Virus record (IMG/VR): IMGVR_UViG_2574180227_000016
Source of the DNA: a virus
Lineage: Duplodnaviria; Heunggongvirae; Uroviricota; Caudoviricetes
DNA length: 21,365 nucleotides
Reading direction: 5' to 3' (one strand)
Shown here: one piece after another, positions 900-21,365 of the stretch
Layout: each line of letters starts with the position of its first letter
Position numbering within the stretch: the first letter of the stretch is position 1
Notes under the pieces: generated by a model
Told to the model about the DNA's origin: nothing
The model's database searches: none
Seen by the model: the letters and a program-made list of their open reading frames with translations, nothing else
Position numbers and translations under genes: made by a program

Positions 900-936
900 A
901 CAAAATCAATATAAACAGCCCCTCCGGAGAGGGGCT
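900..936 (-). terminator. candidate stem-loop terminator (AGCCCCTC-CGGA-GAGGGGCT)
   Basis: Perfect 8-bp stem with 4-nt loop at 917-936. On the - strand it is followed by a moderately T-rich tract (GTTTATATTGATTTTG). Confidence 0.3.
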
Positions 937-1176
937 GGAGAGTGGCGCTATGTGCCATTGCATGGTGCCGGGTGCCTCCCGGTGAGTTCAGTATCAGCAC
1001 CTGAACCCGCACAGAAAGGATAAGGGTCGGTGACAAAACACCAGTTGCTGATTGCCCCTCCGCACAGGGGGATTCACCATGCCAGTTTCTTTTAACAAAC
1101 TCCCCGCAAACCAGACAACAGTCAACCGCCTGAATTGTGAGGCATTTAAAAATTTCAACGGGTAACTGATACCCTG

Positions 1177-1937: not shown

Positions 1938-2012
1938 TGGAGCGGGTAGCGGGAATCGAACCACGATAAGAAGGTTAACAGCCTTCCGTAATGACCTTTA
2001 TACGACTGACCC
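1938..2012 (-). pseudogene. degenerate tRNA-like sequence (tRNA-Gly-like scaffold, GUU in the anticodon loop, unpaired acceptor and T stems)
   Basis: Reverse complement reads GGGTCAGTCGTATAAAGGTCATTACGGAAGGCTGTTAACCTTCTTATCGTGGTTCGATTCCCGCTACCCGCTCCA. It has U8, a D arm, an anticodon stem GAAGG/CCTTC with loop CUGUUAA, a TTCGATT T-loop and 3' CCA, but the acceptor and T stems do not pair. Confidence 0.35.
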
Positions 2013-4723: not shown

Positions 4724-4884
4724 AATGACGCCCTCGAGTGGTTTCTAAACTATCACCACCGTCAGGTTCCTAATCATCGGGTGGCGAGACGTACAGGGTT
4801 AGGAACTACCGGGAAACCAACCGGCGAGCTTTTCAGCTCCCCTATACGCCCCACCATAATTCAGATGTGCGTGTGCATACGACA

Positions 4885-4909
4885 ATAAAAAACACGCTCG
4901 CGGCGTGTC
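4885..4909 (-). terminator. rho-independent terminator inside the nin region (tR2-like candidate)
   Basis: In - strand sense: ACACGC-CGCGA-GCGTGT followed by TTTTTTATTG. Confidence 0.45.
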
Positions 4910-5000
4910 TCTGTCGCGGTTTCTATCCGGGGTTCCTAATCCCGACGCCAGATTTTGCTGGCGCGTGAGGAATATAGCCCCGAATAAATCATCACGTCAA

Positions 5001-13377: not shown

Positions 13378-13404
13378 TATGTGTAAATAAATAAGGAGCA
13401 CACC

Positions 13405-13545
13405 ATGCAATATGCCATTGCAGGGTGGCCTGTTGCTGGCTGCCCTTCCGAATCTTTACTTGAACGAATCACCCGTAAATTACGTGACGGATGGAAACGC
13501 CTTATCGACATACTTAATCAGCCAGGAGTTCCCAAAAATGGATAA
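13405..13545 (+). CDS. cIII: CIII (FtsH/HflB inhibitor)
   Basis: Manual translation [46 protein letters not shown] (46 aa) matches lambda CIII over its length; AAGGAG RBS. Under the ORF-track cut-off. Confidence 0.8.
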   Translation: MQYAIAGWPVAGCPSESLLERITRKLRDGWKRLIDILNQPGVPKNG

Positions 13546-13681
13546 AACACTTATGGCTATCCAGACTAAATTCACTATCGCCACTTTTATTGGTGATGAA
13601 AAGATGTTTCGTGAAGCCGTCGACGCTTATAAAAAATGGATATTAATACTGAAACTGAGATCAAGCAAAAGCATTCACTAA
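13538..13681 (+). CDS. kil: Kil (host cell-division inhibitor)
   Basis: 47 aa, [47 protein letters not shown]. Overlaps the cIII stop (ATGGATAA). Confidence 0.75.
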
Positions 13682-13754: not shown

Positions 13755-14051
13755 ATGAACGCTTATTACATTCAGGATCGTCTTGAGGCTCAGAGCTGGG
13801 CGCGTCACTACCAGCAGATCGCCCGTGAAGAGAAAGAGGCAGAACTGGCAGACGACATGGAAAAAGGCCTGCCCCAGCACCTGTTTGAATCGCTATGCAT
13901 CGATCATTTGCAACGCCACGGGGCCAGCAAAAAAGCCATTATCCGTGCGTTTGATGACGATGTTGAGTTTCAGGAGCGCATGGCAGAACACATCCGGTAC
14001 ATGGTTGAAACCATTGCTCACCATCAGGTTGATATTGATTCAGAGGTATAA
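13755..14051 (+). CDS. gam: Gam (RecBCD inhibitor, short form)
   Basis: 98 aa, [60 protein letters not shown], near-identical to lambda GamS. Confidence 0.9.
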
Positions 14052-14056
14052 AACGG

Positions 14057-14842
14057 ATGAGTACAGCACTCGCAACGCTGGCAGGGAAGCTGGCTGAACG
14101 TGTCGGCATGGATTCTGTCGACCCACAGGAACTGATCACCACTCTTCGCCAGACGGCATTTAAAGGCGATGCCAGCGATGCGCAGTTCATCGCATTGTTG
14201 ATCGTCGCCAACCAGTACGGCCTTAATCCGTGGACGAAAGAAATTTACGCCTTCCCTGATAAGCAGAACGGCATCGTTCCGGTGGTGGGCGTTGATGGCT
14301 GGTCCCGCATCATCAATGAAAACCAGCAGTTTGATGGCATGGACTTTGAGCAGGACAATGAATCCTGTACATGCCGGATTTACCGCAAGGACCGTAATCA
14401 TCCGATCTGCGTTACCGAATGGATGGATGAATGCCGCCGCGAACCATTCAAAACCCGCGAAGGCAGAGAAATCACCGGACCGTGGCAGTCGCATCCCAAA
14501 CGGATGTTACGGCATAAAGCCATGATTCAGTGTGCCCGTCTGGCCTTCGGATTTGCTGGTATCTATGACAAGGATGAAGCCGAGCGCATTGTCGAAAATA
14601 CTGCATACACTGCAGAACGTCAGCCAGAACGCGACATCACTCCGGTTAACGATGAAACCATGCAGGAGATTAACACTCTGCTGATCGCCCTGGATAAAAC
14701 ATGGGATGACGACTTATTGCCGCTCTGTTCCCAGATATTTCGCCGCGACATTCGCGCATCGTCAGAACTGACACAGGCCGAAGCAGTGAAAGCTCTTGGA
14801 TTCCTGAAACAGAAAGCCACTGAGCAGAAGGTGGCAGCATGA
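14057..14842 (+). CDS. bet: Bet (Red-beta single-strand annealing protein)
   Basis: 261 aa, essentially identical to lambda Bet over the full length. Confidence 0.9.
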
Positions 14843-15519
14843 CACCGGACATTATCCTGCAGCGTACCGGGATCGACGTGAGAGCTGTCGAACAGGGGGA
14901 TGATGCATGGCACAAATTACGGCTCGGCGTCATCACCGCTTCAGAAGTTCACAACGTGATAGCAAAGCCCCGCTCAGGAAAAAAGTGGCCTGACATGAAA
15001 ATGTCCTACTTCCACACCCTGCTGGCTGAGGTTTGCACCGGTGTGGCTCCGGAAGTTAATGCTAAGGCGCTGGCCTGGGGAAAACAGTACGAGAACGACG
15101 CCAGAACCCTGTTTGAATTCACTTCCGGCGTGAATGTTACTGAATCCCCGATCATCTATCGCGACGAAAGTATGCGCACAGCCTGCTCTCCCGATGGTTT
15201 ATGCAGTGACGGCAATGGCCTTGAGCTGAAATGCCCGTTTACCTCCAGGGATTTCATGAAGTTCCGGCTCGGTGGTTTCGAGGCCATAAAGTCGGCTTAC
15301 ATGGCCCAGGTGCAGTACAGCATGTGGGTGACGCGAAAAGATGCCTGGTACTTTGCCAACTATGACCCGCGTATGAAGCGTGAAGGCCTGCATTATGTCG
15401 TGATTGAGCGGAATGAAAAGTACATGGCGAATTTTGACGAGATGGTGCCGGAGTTCATCGAAAAAATGGACGAGGCACTGGCTGAAATTGGTTTTGTATA
15501 TGGGGAGCAATGGCAATGA
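14839..15519 (+). CDS. exo: Exo (lambda exonuclease, Red-alpha)
   Basis: 226 aa, essentially identical to lambda Exo. Overlaps the bet stop. Confidence 0.9.
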
Positions 15520-15674
15520 AGCATCCTCACGATAATATCCGGGTAGGCGCGATCACTTTCGTCTACTCCGTTACAAAGCGAGGCTGGGTATTTCCCGGCC
15601 TTTCTGTTATCCGAAATCCGCTGAAAGCACAGCGGCTGGCTGAGGAGATAAATAATAAACGGGAGAGTGTATGA
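15516..15674 (+). CDS. small protein coupled to exo (orf60a-like position)
   Basis: Manual translation [52 protein letters not shown] (52 aa). ATGA overlap with the exo stop and ATGA overlap with the next gene. Confidence 0.4.
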
Positions 15675-16423
15675 TTCATTTTCACGGTGGTCCAATAACT
15701 CCCGATACCTGTGCGTTGAAAGCCTGGAAAGGCAGACACGCATTCATCAGTTTTGCTAATCCAGCTCAGATTGATCTGGCTTCCGAAGTCACCCAATCAT
15801 TTGCTCTTGATAATGGTGCATTCACATTCTGGACAAAAAACAAGGCCATAGACTGGAATGAATATTACAGATTTGTTGAACGCTGGGGTAATCACCCTCG
15901 TTTCTCATTCGCAGTTATCCCGGATGTTATCGGCGGAACCAGTGAAGAGAATGACGCCCTGATTGCGGCATGGCCTCACGGTAAATTTATTGGTGCTCCG
16001 GTGTGGCACATGAACGAACCAGATGAGCGATTTATTCGTCTGTGCCATGAGTTTCCCCGCGTCTGCATCGGCTCGATGGGGGAATACGATGCAAAACGAC
16101 CGAGAGCGTGTCGGGCTAAACTACGCGATCTTATACGTCATGTTGTAGATCAGTACGGCTACCCAATCACCAAGATTCATGGGTTACGGATGTTAAATAA
16201 AGACATTTTTACTCATGTACCGCTTTCGTCTGCAGACAGCACGAACGTCGCAAGAAATATAGGCATCGACAAATCCTGGGTAGGTTCGCCATATGCTCCC
16301 GCAAGTAAAGAAACCCGTACGCAAGTTCTTGTGGAACGCATTGAATCATTCAACAGTGCCAGTTCACTTAATTACAACGCTGAACGGGACGTCTTTACCC
16401 CTCAACTGGCATTCGAAGTGTGA
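15671..16423 (+). CDS. TGT-fold / DpdA-like protein (putative nucleic-acid guanine transglycosylase); function tentative
   Basis: 250 aa. Motifs FALDNGAFTFW, VIPDVIGG and HGLRM...SSADSTNVARN resemble the catalytic Asp blocks of queuine tRNA-ribosyltransferase. There is no C-terminal zinc motif, as in phage DpdA-type proteins. Confidence 0.5.
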   Translation: MIHFHGGPITPDTCALKAWKGRHAFISFANPAQIDLASEVTQSFALDNGAFTFWTKNKAIDWNEYYRFVERWGNHPRFSFAVIPDVIGGTSEENDALIAAWPHGKFIGAPVWHMNEPDERFIRLCHEFPRVCIGSMGEYDAKRPRACRAKLRDLIRHVVDQYGYPITKIHGLRMLNKDIFTHVPLSSADSTNVARNIGIDKSWVGSPYAPASKETRTQVLVERIESFNSASSLNYNAERDVFTPQLAFEV

Positions 16424-16430
16424 GGCCAAT

Positions 16431-16646
16431 ATGACAATAGAACATAATAACGCCCTTCGCAGCATTGCCCGTCAGGCTAATTCTGAAATCAAAAAAGCCA
16501 GACAGCAGTTTCCGGATAAAAACGTCGATGACATTTGCCGTAGCGTACTGAAGAAGCACCGCGAAACGGTAACGCTGATGGGATTCACACCGACTCACTT
16601 AAGTCTGGCAATCGGTATGTTAAACGGCGTCTTTAAGGAACGGTGA
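16431..16646 (+). CDS. small hypothetical protein (71 aa), exo-xis region
   Basis: MTIEHNNALRSIARQANSEIKKARQQFPDKNVDDICRSVLKKHRETVTLMGF... Start at the internal ATG with GAGG upstream. Confidence 0.5.
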   Translation: MTIEHNNALRSIARQANSEIKKARQQFPDKNVDDICRSVLKKHRETVTLMGFTPTHLSLAIGMLNGVFKER

Positions 16647-16744: not shown

Positions 16745-16966
16745 ATGGCAGACCTCATTGATTCAGCATCAGAAATTGAAGAATTACAGCGCAACACAGC
16801 AATAAAAATGCGCCGCCTGAACCACCAGGCTATATCTGCCACTCATTGTTGTGAGTGTGGCGATCCCATAGATGAGCGAAGACGCCTGGCCGTTCAGGGT
16901 TGTCGGACTTGTGCAAGTTGCCAGGAGGATCTGGAGCTTATCAGTAAACAGAGAGGTTCGAAGTGA
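16745..16966 (+). CDS. TraR/DksA-family C4 zinc-finger protein (lambda Orf73-like)
   Basis: 73 aa with two Cys pairs (CCECG and CRTCASC), the DksA/TraR zinc-finger arrangement, at the usual exo-xis location. Confidence 0.6.
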   Translation: MADLIDSASEIEELQRNTAIKMRRLNHQAISATHCCECGDPIDERRRLAVQGCRTCASCQEDLELISKQRGSK

Positions 16967-17748
16967 GCGAAATTAACTATCAGGAACTGCGTGAAAAGGC
17001 AGAGAAAGCAACTAAAGGAAGCTACATCGTAGGGCATACATCTGTTAACCAGCACGGCAATTTAACAGGAGTTTTTGTTTGTCAAAAATGGAAAGGAGAA
17101 CCCGGTGGCGTGATTGCCGAATGTCATGTTAACTGCCTGATTGAATCAGATGCTCAGGCTTATGCAAACGCTGAATTTATAGCAGATGCTAACCCAGCTA
17201 CCGTACTGGCGCTACTGGATGAACGGGAAAGAAACCAGCAATACATCAAACGCCGCGACCAGGAGAACGAGGATATTGCGCTTACGGTTGGGAAGCTGAG
17301 AGTTGAGCTTGAGGAGACAAAATCAAAACTCAACGAGCAGCGTGAGTATTACGAAGGTGTTATCTCGGATGGGAGTAAGCGTATTGCTGAACTGGAGAAA
17401 ATCGCCACTGACTATGCACTGAAATTTCAGAAAGCCCAGGACGCATTAAAGTACGCTGTTTTGCTGCGCAAATCAGGGCAGGAAGCACGGGAAATAAAAC
17501 CAGCCAAAGGCGAAGTTCTTGTCGTTGTATCTGGTTTTACTGGTTGCGGAAAAAGCGCCATCGCCGGGGAAATAGAAATCGCGATGAAGTCTATTGGTGT
17601 ACCGGTTAAGTGGACTAATGGCGATGCGGAAAAGCGCATGACAGGAGCTGACTGGCTGACAGCGATTGAGATGTACAAACCAACAGTGCGCATCGTGGAA
17701 GTTAATGTGCCACGCGCCGCAGGCATTCGCATCAAAGGAGGTGCGTAA
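16963..17748 (+). CDS. ea22: Ea22-like mosaic protein
   Basis: GTG start with GAGAGG RBS, overlapping the upstream stop. Central block LLDERERNQQYIKRRDQENEDIALTVGKLRVELE...NEQREYYEGVISDGSKRIAELE matches the conserved Ea22 core. N- and C-terminal domains differ from lambda. Confidence 0.65.
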   Translation: MSEINYQELREKAEKATKGSYIVGHTSVNQHGNLTGVFVCQKWKGEPGGVIAECHVNCLIESDAQAYANAEFIADANPATVLALLDERERNQQYIKRRDQENEDIALTVGKLRVELEETKSKLNEQREYYEGVISDGSKRIAELEKIATDYALKFQKAQDALKYAVLLRKSGQEAREIKPAKGEVLVVVSGFTGCGKSAIAGEIEIAMKSIGVPVKWTNGDAEKRMTGADWLTAIEMYKPTVRIVEVNVPRAAGIRIKGGA

Positions 17749-17924
17749 TGCGTGTCGCGTTTATCGGTTTATTACCATACCCGACTCGTTTTTGGGCTTC
17801 TGCGCTAATTGCAAAGCCGCATGTACTGATGGCTGACAACATCATCCCGGCACCAAAGCGCCGCCATACCGGTATTGCGGCTGCACGACGCGAAGTAAAG
17901 AAACGCAGGAGAGCAAAACGATGA
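17748..17924 (+). CDS. small basic protein (58 aa)
   Basis: AGGAGG RBS 6 nt upstream; TAATG overlap with the ea22 stop. Manual translation MRVAFIGLLPYPTRFWASALIAKPHVLMADNIIPAPKRRHTGIAAARREVKKRRRAKR. Confidence 0.35.
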   Translation: MRVAFIGLLPYPTRFWASALIAKPHVLMADNIIPAPKRRHTGIAAARREVKKRRRAKR

Positions 17925-18103
17925 AAAACCGTAAGGCAAAAATTCTGTTAGCTCGCAGAAACGGTGTTGGGGTCTGGCGCTGGTTGAGGATTAGTAACAG
18001 ACGAGTGAGGTTGACGGGGTGTTGCGGGGTGATGGGGCACAGCTGTTGCAAAAAGCCCAGCGCGTCACAGAACAGGCGGAAGAAAGGGTACGCAGTAAGA
18101 TGA
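17921..18103 (+). CDS. small basic protein, first of a tandem paralogous pair
   Basis: MKNRKAKILLARRNGVGVWRWLRISNRRVRL... ATGA overlaps on both sides. Confidence 0.35.
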   Translation: MKNRKAKILLARRNGVGVWRWLRISNRRVRLTGCCGVMGHSCCKKPSASQNRRKKGYAVR

Positions 18104-18291
18104 AAAACCGTAAAGCAAAGATGCTTATTTCCCGTGTATACAGACGTTGCTATCCCAGCCAGTGGTTGAGAGTTAGCAATCGCCGTGTGGTGTTGTACTT
18201 ATATTCTGGAATTGCCAGAGAGGGAATCAAAGATAAGCGCAGCGCGGCGCAAAACCGCTGGAAAAAACACTTGCGCACTAAAGGAGCCTGA
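18100..18291 (+). CDS. small basic protein, second of the tandem pair
   Basis: MKNRKAKMLISRVYRRCYPSQWLRVSNRRVVL... shares the start and the WLR-SNRRV-L block with the preceding ORF. Confidence 0.35.
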   Translation: MKNRKAKMLISRVYRRCYPSQWLRVSNRRVVLYLYSGIAREGIKDKRSAAQNRWKKHLRTKGA

Positions 18292-18292
18292 T

Positions 18293-18502
18293 ATGTCTAT
18301 TGCCGCAAGTTACACCATGCATCTCTATTGTGACTGCCGCCAGTGTACGGAAGGTGTATATCCAGTGCCAGACTTCGGTGAGTATATCGGTACGTCATGG
18401 TCTGGTTGTGCAAAAGAGGACCGTAAAGACGGGTGGCGAATAAGCAAAGACAAAACACGTGCTTTTGCGCCAGGGCATAAAGTTTTAAGGATTAACACAT
18501 GA
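18293..18502 (+). CDS. hypothetical Cys-rich small protein (69 aa)
   Basis: AAGGAG RBS. MSIAASYTMHLYCDCRQCTEGVYPVPDFGEY... Confidence 0.45.
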   Translation: MSIAASYTMHLYCDCRQCTEGVYPVPDFGEYIGTSWSGCAKEDRKDGWRISKDKTRAFAPGHKVLRINT

Positions 18503-18918
18503 CCACTATTACCAAAGAACGTATTGAATTGTTCATTAAAAATCCGCTTGAAAACGGGCTTACTCGTGGCGAACAAATGGAACTGGCACGAATTGCACTG
18601 GCATCACTGGAACGCGAACTGATTCGCCACGAGCATGCCAAATGGTCTGACTCCACATTTGGCTGCGTTGGCCCCATTGGTCCACTGAAACACCTCTCAA
18701 AAGAGGCTCTGGAAGCCGCAGCCGAACCAGACGATCTCAGCGAGTGGGCTGATATGCATTTCCTGTTGTGGGATGCACAGCGCCGTTCTGGCATCAGCGA
18801 TGCTGAAATTACCGCTGCTATGGAAGATAAATTGAAGATCAACATGGAGCGCCAGTGGCCTGAACCAAAAGATGGTGAGCCTCGCTTGCACATTAAAGAA
18901 CCGGCAACTCTCCGGTAA
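18499..18918 (+). CDS. DUF550-like / MazG-like nucleotide pyrophosphohydrolase-type protein (tentative)
   Basis: 139 aa. The acidic helix KEALEAAAEPDDLSEWADMHFLLWD resembles the MazG-type E/D metal-binding motif. ATGA overlap upstream. Confidence 0.4.
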   Translation: MTTITKERIELFIKNPLENGLTRGEQMELARIALASLERELIRHEHAKWSDSTFGCVGPIGPLKHLSKEALEAAAEPDDLSEWADMHFLLWDAQRRSGISDAEITAAMEDKLKINMERQWPEPKDGEPRLHIKEPATLR

Positions 18919-18971: not shown

Positions 18972-19307
18972 ATGGCAGATGCGCTTGGTGTATTCGGTGA
19001 TGCAGCAGTACAGAAAGTTCTGGATAACCTGTCACAGCAAAAACTTGTTCACAGAGATGTGCTGCCGTTCTCGCTTCCGGTAACTCCGGATGGTTGGATA
19101 AGCTGTAGTGAGCGAATGCCGAACGATAAACAGTATGTTTGGTGTTGGGGTAAGTCTTACGGCTGGACTGAGTGCGATACCTTCGAAGGGTATTACGATT
19201 GTTCGAGAAACAAATGGTGGGCAGTTACTGACAATGGGGAAGAACCGGCATCGAAAGTAACCCACTGGATGCCGCTGCCAGAACCGCCGCAGGAGGTGAA
19301 TCAATGA
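18972..19307 (+). CDS. DUF551-like protein
   Basis: 111 aa with the GWISCSERMPND...THWMPLPEPP pattern typical of DUF551 prophage proteins. GGAG RBS. Confidence 0.5.
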   Translation: MADALGVFGDAAVQKVLDNLSQQKLVHRDVLPFSLPVTPDGWISCSERMPNDKQYVWCWGKSYGWTECDTFEGYYDCSRNKWWAVTDNGEEPASKVTHWMPLPEPPQEVNQ

Positions 19308-19391
19308 GCTGGCCTGATGCAATCGTAACTCTGGGGATGGTATTCGCAGTAGCGTTTGTTGTGTACTCGATTTGTCGATGGGGATAACCAC

Positions 19392-19634
19392 ATGTTCGCT
19401 TTGATTCAACGCGGGCAGATATACACCGATAGTGCTGGCTACCCGATAAAAATTGTTCGCTGCATAAACAACACTGTGTTGTACAGAAGAATGGATGGGC
19501 GAACACAGTCAGTAAAAATAAACGATTTCAATGAACTGTTTGAACGGATTGATCACCAAGAATACCGACAAATTCTGGCAGAAACAGAGCAGGAAGCTCA
19601 TCTGAAAAAATTACGGGCCATGAAAAGGAAGTAA
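19392..19634 (+). CDS. hypothetical protein (80 aa)
   Basis: Start at the internal ATG. MFALIQRGQIYTDSAGYPIKIVRCINNTVLYRRMDGRTQSVKINDFNELFERIDHQEYRQILAETEQEAHLKKLRAMKRK. Confidence 0.45.
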   Translation: MFALIQRGQIYTDSAGYPIKIVRCINNTVLYRRMDGRTQSVKINDFNELFERIDHQEYRQILAETEQEAHLKKLRAMKRK

Positions 19635-19790: not shown

Positions 19791-20045
19791 ATGCAGACAA
19801 TCATCTATCAGATAACCCCCAGCAAATGGTGTACGGAGAGAGTCCTCATTGCATCAACAGGGCTAAAGCCTGGCACCATTGAGCGGGCAAGAAGAAAGTC
19901 ATGGATGCAGGGAAAAGAATACCGCCATTACGCTGTAGAAGTTGATCCGGGGCACTACAGTGAATGCCTGTACAACATCGAAGAAATTATGCGATGGATC
20001 GAAAACCAGAAACAACCAGGTGCCAAAAATGCAAGTTCCGGTTAA
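19791..20045 (+). CDS. putative excisionase / recombination directionality factor
   Basis: 84-aa basic protein immediately upstream of the integrase, with GAGG 5 nt before the ATG. Assignment rests on position and size only. Confidence 0.45.
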   Translation: MQTIIYQITPSKWCTERVLIASTGLKPGTIERARRKSWMQGKEYRHYAVEVDPGHYSECLYNIEEIMRWIENQKQPGAKNASSG

Positions 20046-20078: not shown

Positions 20079-21365
20079 ATGAGTAACGCATCATACCCGA
20101 CAGGCGTTGAAAACCATGGAGGATCACTCCGTATATGGTTTCACTATAATGGCAAACGTGTCAGAGAAAACCTCGGTGTTCCTGACACAGCCAAAAACCG
20201 GAAGATCGCTGGTGAACTTCGCACTTCCGTTTGTTTTGCAATCAGAATGGGGAGTTTCGACTACGCCGCGCAGTTCCCTAATTCCCCTAACCTGAAACAC
20301 TTTGGTCTGGGAAAAAGAGAGATAACCGTTAAGGCACTTTCGGAAAAATGGTTGGACCTTAAGAAAATTGAGATTTGTGCGAATGCACTTAACCGTTACC
20401 AGTCAGTAATTAAAAACATGTTACCAATGTTAGGTGAAAAAAAACTGGTTTCATCCATAACAAAAGAGGATTTACTTTTCGTAAGGAGAGATTTGTTGAC
20501 CGGTTACCAAAAGCTTTCTAATGGAAAGACTTCTTCCATAAAAGGGCGCTCAGTGGTCACGGTAAACTACTATATGACAACCATAGCTGGAATGTTTCAA
20601 TTTGCAACAGATAATGGTTATACCTCAGGAAACCCATTTAACGGTCTGGCTCCCTTAAAAAAGTCCAAGGTAAAACCAGATCCTCTCACCCGTGACGAAT
20701 TTATTCGTTTTATTGAGGCTTGCCGTCATCAACAAACAAAAAACCTGTGGATTCTCGCTGTATACACGGGTATTCGTCACGGGGAGTTGGTATCGCTGGC
20801 ATGGGAAGATATAGACCTTAAAGCAAGGACTATAACCATCCGTAGAAATTATACAAAACTTGGCGAATTCACTCCACCAAAAACCGATGCAGGCACCGGA
20901 AGGACAATTCATCTGGTTCAACCAGCTATTGATGCTCTTAAAAGCCAGGCGGAAATGACCATGCTTGGAAAGCAACATTCTGTAGAGGTGAAGCAGAGGG
21001 AATATGGGAGAACTGCTGTGCATAAATGCACTTTTGTTTTTAGTCCTCAGGTAACAAAACAGCAGCAGTTGTCCGGACCTCACTACAAGGTTGACTCCAT
21101 CAGGGAGTCATGGACAAGTATCTTAAAACGCGCAGGTCTGAGACACAGAAAATCGTACCAATCCAGGCATACTTATGCATGCTGGTCACTTGCCGCAGGA
21201 GCTAATCCTAGTTTTATCGCAAGCCAGATGGGCCACACAAACACACAAATGGTATTCAATGTTTACGGAGCATGGATGAAAGACAACAATCACGAACAGA
21301 TAGAACTCCTTAACAAAAGACTATCTGAAAGTGTCCCATGTATGCCCCATAAGAAAGCTGGGTAA
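20079..21365 (+). CDS. int: tyrosine site-specific integrase
   Basis: 428 aa. C-terminal catalytic region contains the R...HxxR...Y tyrosine-recombinase signature (GIRHGELVSLAWEDID; SRHTYACWSLAAG; VYGAWM). Stop is at the last base of the window, so the att site lies beyond it. Confidence 0.9.
   Translation: MSNASYPTGVENHGGSLRIWFHYNGKRVRENLGVPDTAKNRKIAGELRTSVCFAIRMGSFDYAAQFPNSPNLKHFGLGKREITVKALSEKWLDLKKIEICANALNRYQSVIKNMLPMLGEKKLVSSITKEDLLFVRRDLLTGYQKLSNGKTSSIKGRSVVTVNYYMTTIAGMFQFATDNGYTSGNPFNGLAPLKKSKVKPDPLTRDEFIRFIEACRHQQTKNLWILAVYTGIRHGELVSLAWEDIDLKARTITIRRNYTKLGEFTPPKTDAGTGRTIHLVQPAIDALKSQAEMTMLGKQHSVEVKQREYGRTAVHKCTFVFSPQVTKQQQLSGPHYKVDSIRESWTSILKRAGLRHRKSYQSRHTYACWSLAAGANPSFIASQMGHTNTQMVFNVYGAWMKDNNHEQIELLNKRLSESVPCMPHKKAG

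Follow-up and report, generated by a model that had tools for sequence, protein, structure and literature searches.

We find that two adjacent small genes in the exo-xis accessory region of an Escherichia coli lambdoid prophage, here termed O2 and O3, are very probably real paralogous genes belonging to an array of recombining cassettes. They are encoded, like their neighbors, on the + strand of a stretch of 21,365 nucleotides (nt), IMG/VR virus record IMGVR_UViG_2574180227_000016 (Caudoviricetes), which we refer to in its entirety as the window. An earlier account of this DNA drawn from its letters alone (the sequence-only reading) had described two open reading frames (ORFs) of 60 and 63 amino acids (aa) that both start with MKNRKAK and share a WLR-SNRRV-L block, and had taken them for an old, coupled tandem duplication of an exo-xis region. 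Both ORFs are present as described, and their location is confirmed by Pfam matches to Gam, RecT/Bet, and YqaJ/Exo upstream and to Xis and Int downstream: O2 and O3 lie between exo and xis, on the same strand, with no terminator in between. The interval then given for the pair, 17748-18291, also takes in O1, which is unrelated to them. The ORFs of immediate concern are:

17748-17924, + strand: O1, 58 aa, isoelectric point (pI) 12.0; matches phrog_13831 with E=1.1e-40
17921-18103, + strand: O2, 60 aa, phrog_1380, internal type, with the tail ...SQNRRKKGYAVR; from PHROG and the ORF list
18100-18291, + strand: O3, 63 aa, phrog_1380, terminal type, with the tail ...QNRWKKHLRTKGA; from PHROG and the ORF list
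18293-18502, + strand: O4, Cys-rich, 69 aa; matches phrog_926 with E=9.9e-35

The coding status of O2 and O3 was assessed on 83 related loci, in which a hidden Markov model located 111 copies of the gene (hereafter units) representing 72 unique nucleotide sequences. All 71 of the 71 unique units of normal length are open in the proposed frame, against at most 10% of them in any other frame. Between O2 and O3 the synonymous sites are saturated (proportion of differing synonymous sites, pS, 0.76; of nonsynonymous sites, pN, 0.35), and within the individual unit types the pooled pN/pS ranges from 0.00 to 0.44, accompanied by an excess of third-position variation. Residues N3, R4, K5, A6, K7, S26, N27, G37, K46, and N52 are invariant across the family and R28, R29, and R53 nearly so; since each of these is specified by 2-5 synonymous codons, the selection acts on the protein rather than on the nucleotides. 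By these measures of coding O2 and O3 are real genes. The possibility of chance ORFs or a non-coding element was rejected on the openness of the frame, the pN/pS values, the synonymous codons, the lack of an Rfam family matching the O1-O4 region, and the unexceptional predicted folding of its RNA (z=-0.42). The protein-level conservation and old divergence supposed by the sequence-only reading are thereby upheld, the comparison of substitution rates and of frame integrity across homologs being the check that it had itself put forward.

The kinship of O2 and O3 is far above chance: they are 48% identical in BLASTP (E=5e-12), and both match the 62-position profile phrog_1380 over their full length (O2, 6e-29 over profile positions 1-60; O3, 1.9e-32 over positions 1-61). 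At the DNA level they are about 60% identical and near-identical over the first 21 nt only. Beyond the shared MKNRKAK start and a WLR(I/V)SNRRV.L block, they have in common a C-terminal block, S-A-x-Q-N-R-x-K-K, that had previously been overlooked. The homolog alignments yield the family signature MKNRKAK ... SN(R/H)(R/K) ... SAAQNR, to which both conform, O2 as a variant with the internal type of tail. All of O1, O2, and O3 are strongly basic (pI 11.6-12.0). In contrast to the PHROG assignments, none of O1-O4 is matched by Pfam or NCBIfam, or by PADLOC at E<=1, and phrog_1380, phrog_13831, and phrog_926 are all annotated as of unknown function. O1 is not a degenerate third unit, a candidate we rejected as its alignment to the unit profile (hhalign) has a probability of 0.2%.

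The paralogy is not in itself new. O2 is identical to PhiV10p50, an 821-nt region matches phage phiV10 at 94.9% identity, and a resemblance of p51 to p50 and to VT2-Sap08 is already recorded in the phiV10 annotation; the family was likewise already catalogued, with PhiV10p50, PhiV10p51, 933W L0068 (the one unit of that phage), and VT2-Sa p08 identifiable as members of phrog_1380, and all public names being "hypothetical protein". What is new here is the corrected gene start, the arrays of 1-3 units with position-specific tails, and the evidence for cassette recombination. The phiV10 pair and that of the window are the same in kind, but the two units of the window sit in a lambdoid prophage akin to BP-4795/JLK-2012, whereas phiV10 is epsilon15-like. 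The family is present in 144 of 50,697 phage records, and of 1.84 billion cluster representatives, searched exhaustively with the profile, only 44 reached E<=0.001. The records listed span several enterobacterial phage lineages, namely Shiga toxin (Stx) lambdoids, the epsilon15-like phiV10, the P1-like RCS47, and Sashavirus, and the family is confined among them to phages and prophages of enterobacteria. On other phage contigs, divergent members (P0092 and P0093) have only small early genes without annotation as neighbors. In P0092 (locus L085, 5001-5591, a 72.5-kilobase phage contig) the divergent unit continues into a C-terminal extension of some 130 aa without a Pfam match, possibly a natural fusion that could hint at function. 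The 90%-identity cluster of O2 (P0096, P0101, P0109) also lists proteins of 193 and 123 aa that share no sequence with O2; these were considered as O2-O3 fusions and rejected as unrelated proteins, apparently brought in by a database clustering artifact.

The units fall into several types:

Type A: the O3 type
Type B: the 933W L0068 type
Type B2: the O2 type
Types C and D: seen as first units only
Type E: a 61-aa form, found in other contexts

Counting the window together with the 83 loci, a sample whose ranking by similarity to O3 biases the proportions, the number of units is one in 58 of the 84 sources, two in 25, and three in one (L017), and the arrays are without exception head-to-tail. 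The last 8-10 codons are set by the position of a unit in its array and not by its type. Every internal unit ends in ...QNRR(K/E)KGYAVR followed by the ATGA junction, and the terminal-unit ending ...QNRWKNHLRTKGE (...WKNHLRTKGE) holds the ribosome-binding site of the next gene. In types A, B, and B2 the terminal unit ends in ...QNRWKNHLRTKG(E/D/A); type E and a few variants have other endings (...NHVRFQ, ...NHLYKL). At the nucleotide level, internal and terminal B units are 97% identical in the core against 33% in the tail, and O2 and an internal unit of type C are near random in the core (29%) against 96-100% in the C-terminal block and tail, the tail by itself being 100% identical; terminal A and B units, similarly, agree at 50% in the core against 90-96% at the 3' end. 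In other genomes (P0098, P0107), the O2 core is joined to a terminal tail as well. Because the cores and tails have such discordant histories, the arrays are taken to be put together and altered through homologous recombination, with the conserved unit ends as its sites. As far as can be judged from sequence, the O2/O3 pair need not have arisen by duplication in situ and may have been assembled by inter-phage recombination. Of the old tandem duplication originally supposed, the old divergence therefore stands (pS being saturated), but a simple in-situ event is too narrow an account of arrays with 1-3 units and discordant cores and tails. Conserved junctions bearing Shine-Dalgarno sequences around swappable cassettes, here O1, the units, and O4, are likewise a feature of the mosaic module junctions of lambdoid phages; unlike in those, the recombining sequences of the units are part of the coding sequence of a repeated gene, resulting in variable copy number and position-specific C-termini.

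The junctions of the chain are uniformly tight. The ea22 stop overlaps the O1 start (TAATG), O1/O2 and O2/O3 are each joined by an ATGA overlap, O3 and O4 are joined as TGA-T-ATG (stop 18289-18291, ATG 18293), and the O4/DUF550 junction is again ATGA. The sequence-only reading had linked the whole chain by ATGA overlaps, which is right for O1/O2 and O2/O3 but not for O3/O4, though the tight coupling holds there as well; the AGGAGG ribosome-binding site that it had noted ahead of the 58-aa ORF is indeed found. The Shine-Dalgarno elements are:

17736-17741, + strand: AGGAGG, for O1, 6 nt 5' of the ATG, read from the sequence
17907-17911, + strand: AGGAG, for O2, 9 nt 5' of the ATG, within the tail of O1
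18281-18286, + strand: AAGGAG, for O4, within the codons T-K-G at the end of O3; the TGA stop comes next and, after a gap of 1 nt, the ATG

O3 itself is preceded by a weak AAAGGG only, 11 nt upstream. The ..ACGCAGGAGAGCAAAACGATG junction recurs 5' of the first units in many loci, and the terminal-unit junction ACTAAAGGAGnnTGAtATG is kept regardless of which gene comes next, on which ground we take the codons of the terminal tail to double as the Shine-Dalgarno sequence of the following cistron. An equivalent ...KGE-stop tail, in which the codons AAAGGAG constitute the next gene's Shine-Dalgarno sequence (18280-18295 here), ends not only the terminal units but also some O4 variants (...SNKGE); its recurrence suggests, at the sequence level, a junction design common to the cassettes of the exo-xis accessory region. 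As there are no promoter-like or terminator-like sites within or beside the O1-O4 ORFs, these are internal cistrons of the early-left operon.

The genes flanking the units behave as cassettes in their own right. O1 is optional and stands ahead of the array in only some loci; among its 22 unique homologs pN/pS is 0.25 and the sense frame is open in all. One antisense frame of O1 is also fully open in 22 of 22 unique homologs, the selection statistics favoring the sense frame. O4 (pN/pS 0.18) lies directly downstream of the array in 33 of the 84 sources, and is thus the commonest downstream neighbor without being an obligatory one. The block of 933W looks like an insertion that splits ea22 (Donaldson 2021, PMC8614690). 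In that phage (locus L002, 1763-4229), the N-terminal part of Ea22 is encoded by L0069 and its C-terminal domain by L0065, with the unit L0068, the O4 homolog L0067, and L0066 in between.

Structure prediction with AlphaFold2 on an alignment of 30 sequences, shared by the O2 and O3 runs, which are hence not independent, gave for O3 a helix (residues 4-16), three strands (20-26, 29-34, 39-44), and a second helix (49-61) with a predicted local distance difference test (pLDDT) score of 72; the same α-β3-α order was predicted for O2 (pLDDT 70). On the model, the conserved blocks, in which invariant Asn, Gln, Ser, Arg, and Lys residues abound, fall in helix 1, the β1-β2 turn (SNRR), and the beginning of helix 2 (SAAQNRWK). 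Foldseek retrieved nothing significant from PDB (best E about 1), including no solved structure of HicA or of a double-stranded RNA-binding domain (dsRBD), and its sole match in BFVD is a likely homolog in phage Av-05; a profile search of PDB chain sequences gave only a spurious match to Nop16 (E=0.49). The HicA and dsRBD domains have an α-β-β-β-α order in about 60-70 aa, which O2 and O3 share according to the predictions, and dsRBDs contact RNA via helix 1, the β1-β2 turn, and the start of helix 2. The likeness thus extends to the predicted order, size, basic charge, and location of the conserved blocks at the RNA-contact regions of dsRBDs, and is a lead only. Against it, O2 and O3 have no Pfam match at E<=1 to PF07927 (HicA_toxin) or PF00035 (dsrm), no structural match, no catalytic His, and no HicB-like partner. 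On these models, the resemblance is a mechanistic lead and not a classification.

Bringing these strands together, we conclude that O2 and O3 are diverged copies of an extremely basic phage protein of about 60 aa, specified by the pL-driven exo-xis region, where they form internal cistrons in a chain with translational coupling that comprises ea22, O1, O2, O3, O4, and DUF550. A unit consists of a conserved 5' end (MKNRKAK), the SNRR hairpin, a highly divergent core, the SAAQNR block, and 8-10 position-dependent last codons, which form either the internal linker ...RRKKGYAVR-stop/ATGA or the terminal ...WKNHLRTKGE whose codons supply the next gene's Shine-Dalgarno sequence. The protein is predicted to fold as α-β3-α and might bind RNA, the ribosome, or DNA, thereby modulating host or phage gene expression early after induction. 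Nucleic-acid binding is suggested by a net charge of about +17 in 60 residues together with the invariant Asn, Gln, Ser, and Arg of the conserved blocks; as the activity of O2 and O3 we regard it as a tentative assignment, somewhat less likely than not. As a whole, an array of coding cassettes that specify a nucleic-acid-binding early accessory protein is probably the best explanation, a judgement we make with some reservation. A bolder version holds that the units are a new class of minimal RNA- or ribosome-binding host-takeover proteins of about 60 aa with a dsRBD/HicA-like topology, in which the conserved terminal helices give nucleic-acid affinity and the swappable divergent cores of the modular arrays set specificity, cassette recombination retargets or broadens the activity, and internal and terminal units form translationally coupled heterodimers; this we consider speculative and unlikely.

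The characterized small exo-xis proteins of lambda and Stx phages (Orf60a, Orf61, Orf63, Orf73/TraR-like, Ea8.5, and Ea22) occupy the same compartment as the units and show the same logic of early, pL-driven, dispensable accessory functions (PMC8614690). A TraR-like Orf73 homolog and an Ea22-like gene lie directly upstream of O1-O3 in the window. The units differ in being situated in the variable block downstream of ea22 rather than in the conserved orf60a-ea22 block and in sharing no common Pfam family with those proteins; no homology to Orf60a, Orf61, Orf63, Orf73, Ea8.5, or Ea22 was detected, O1-O4 being without a Pfam or NCBIfam match. To our knowledge, most genes in the variable exo-xis part have no known role, and our search of the literature on the gene names, phiV10, and ribosome profiling (Ribo-seq) of enterohemorrhagic E. 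coli (EHEC) found no data on these ORFs. In Shiga-toxin and related prophages, the choice between lysis and lysogeny, and hence toxin release, is influenced by the exo-xis region. Phi24B, the phage most used for exo-xis genetics, has no unit, so its published exo-xis phenotypes are inapplicable to O2 and O3; 933W and phiV10 carry the family and are the ones suited to its study.

An alternative sees the units as protein-binding inhibitors of a host factor or a defense system, whose divergent cores and arrays reflect an arms race. It would account for the strong divergence of the core between types (29-50% nucleotide identity) next to the conserved ends, the combination of different unit types in arrays, the presence of the family in the accessory region of unrelated temperate phage lineages, and its divergent members among the small early genes of other phages. 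Yet the core within each type is under purifying and not diversifying selection (pN/pS 0-0.44), and the known DNA-mimicking small counter-defense proteins are acidic, which at a pI of about 12 counts against the units acting in this manner; the lack of a PADLOC match for its part excludes kinship with known defense components but not a counter-defense role. Overall, we judge an inhibitor to be rather unlikely. Under a less favored alternative, the units would be small toxins with which the induced prophage kills or arrests its host, for example ribonucleases of a HicA-like or dsRBD-like kind or poisons of the nucleoid or ribosome. The units' length of about 60 aa, basic nature, and predicted α-β-β-β-α order would fit, but a toxin-antitoxin system is not apparent from the organization: the unit is single in 58 of 84 sources, O1 and O4 are each optional, and both paralogs are equally basic. 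We thus rejected the toxin-antitoxin reading for want of the defining partnership and that of a known defense system for want of a PADLOC match, and a toxin in general seems quite improbable.

It is also conceivable that the conserved ends serve mainly as recombination linkers, with the ORFs being passengers that the phage tolerates and that do little of their own, given that the junction sequences are kept irrespective of the neighbors, the cores and tails have discordant histories, O1 and O4 come and go as cassettes, and the 933W block seems inserted into ea22 (PMC8614690). Such passengers would not be expected to vary synonymously at conserved codons while the amino acids stay invariant; further, SNRR, G37, and K46, all far from the junctions, are invariant too, the frame is always intact, and pN/pS is below 0.5 in every type. 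We accordingly hold this to be very unlikely.

Finally, the extent of the O3 product calls for comment, as an alternative 90-aa ORF initiating at GTG 18019 (18019-18291) overlaps O2, and this longer form is annotated for PhiV10p51 and in many E. coli genomes (the database entry P0003 is found on 231 contigs). In alignments, the N-terminal extensions vary from locus to locus and represent an alternative-frame reading of the upstream sequence, and the PHROG profile starts at MKNRKAK; for these two reasons, the 63-aa form is taken as the real one and the 90-aa GTG-start form was rejected. On the alignments, the true start of O3 is ATG 18100, giving a product of 63 aa. O3 also lies in the -1 frame of O2, whose codons 44-45 include CAAAAAG, with the slip-prone AAAAAG in the overlap. 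A programmed frameshift should show a conserved slippery site and a -1 frame open in all arrays, but the open -1 stretch varies between 9 and 47 codons among arrays, locus L009 combines the same O2 with a -1 frame that closes after the slip site and before O3, and the slip motif is missing from the overlap where an array begins with a type C or D unit; an O2-O3 fusion by -1 frameshifting at CAAAAAG was hence rejected as unconserved. That the true product is longer by either route is extremely improbable. With the 60-63 aa products in place of the widely annotated 90-aa form, the right constructs and deletions can be made in work on this family, to which the recombining arrays with position-specific tails should be of use as well.

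The other genes recognized around the array, from the early-left genes to the integrase, are:

13412-13681, + strand: Kil (Lambda_Kil; Pfam), an 89-aa ORF with the match in its C-terminal part
13755-14051, + strand: Gam (Pfam)
14057-14842, + strand: RecT/Bet (Pfam)
14839-15519, + strand: YqaJ/Exo (Pfam)
16745-16966, + strand: TraR/DksA zinc-finger protein, Orf73-like (Pfam)
16963-17748, + strand: Ead/Ea22-like gene, 261 aa (Pfam PF13935 Ead_Ea22, E=2.4e-40)
18499-18918, + strand: DUF550, of the dATP/dGTP pyrophosphohydrolase family (Pfam PF04447, E=6.8e-42)
18972-19307, + strand: DUF551 (Pfam)
19356-19634, + strand: DUF4222 (Pfam)
19791-20045, + strand: excisionase Xis (DUF1233; Pfam)
20079-21365, + strand: integrase Int (Pfam)

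The closest phages to the window as a whole are JLK-2012, BP-4795, and YYZ-2008. Between exo and the TraR-like gene are two overlapping ORFs without a Pfam match, 15671-16423 (250 aa) and 16293-16646 (117 aa), both on the + strand. A lambda cIII thermoregulator RNA element (Rfam, 88.5 bits) at 13392-13450 (+) overlaps the 5' end of the ORF at 13412-13681. On the - strand, 4777-4977 holds Rfam gathering-level matches to the C4 antisense RNA (4777-4861), isrK (4887-4964), and the c4 a1/b1 target (4924-4977), which together constitute a P1/P7-type antisense immunity module (antirepressor control) within a lambdoid prophage. Near the left end of the window, Rfam identifies a full-length STnc100 small RNA (137.6 bits) and a transfer RNA, at 907-1111 (-) and 1943-2012 (-).

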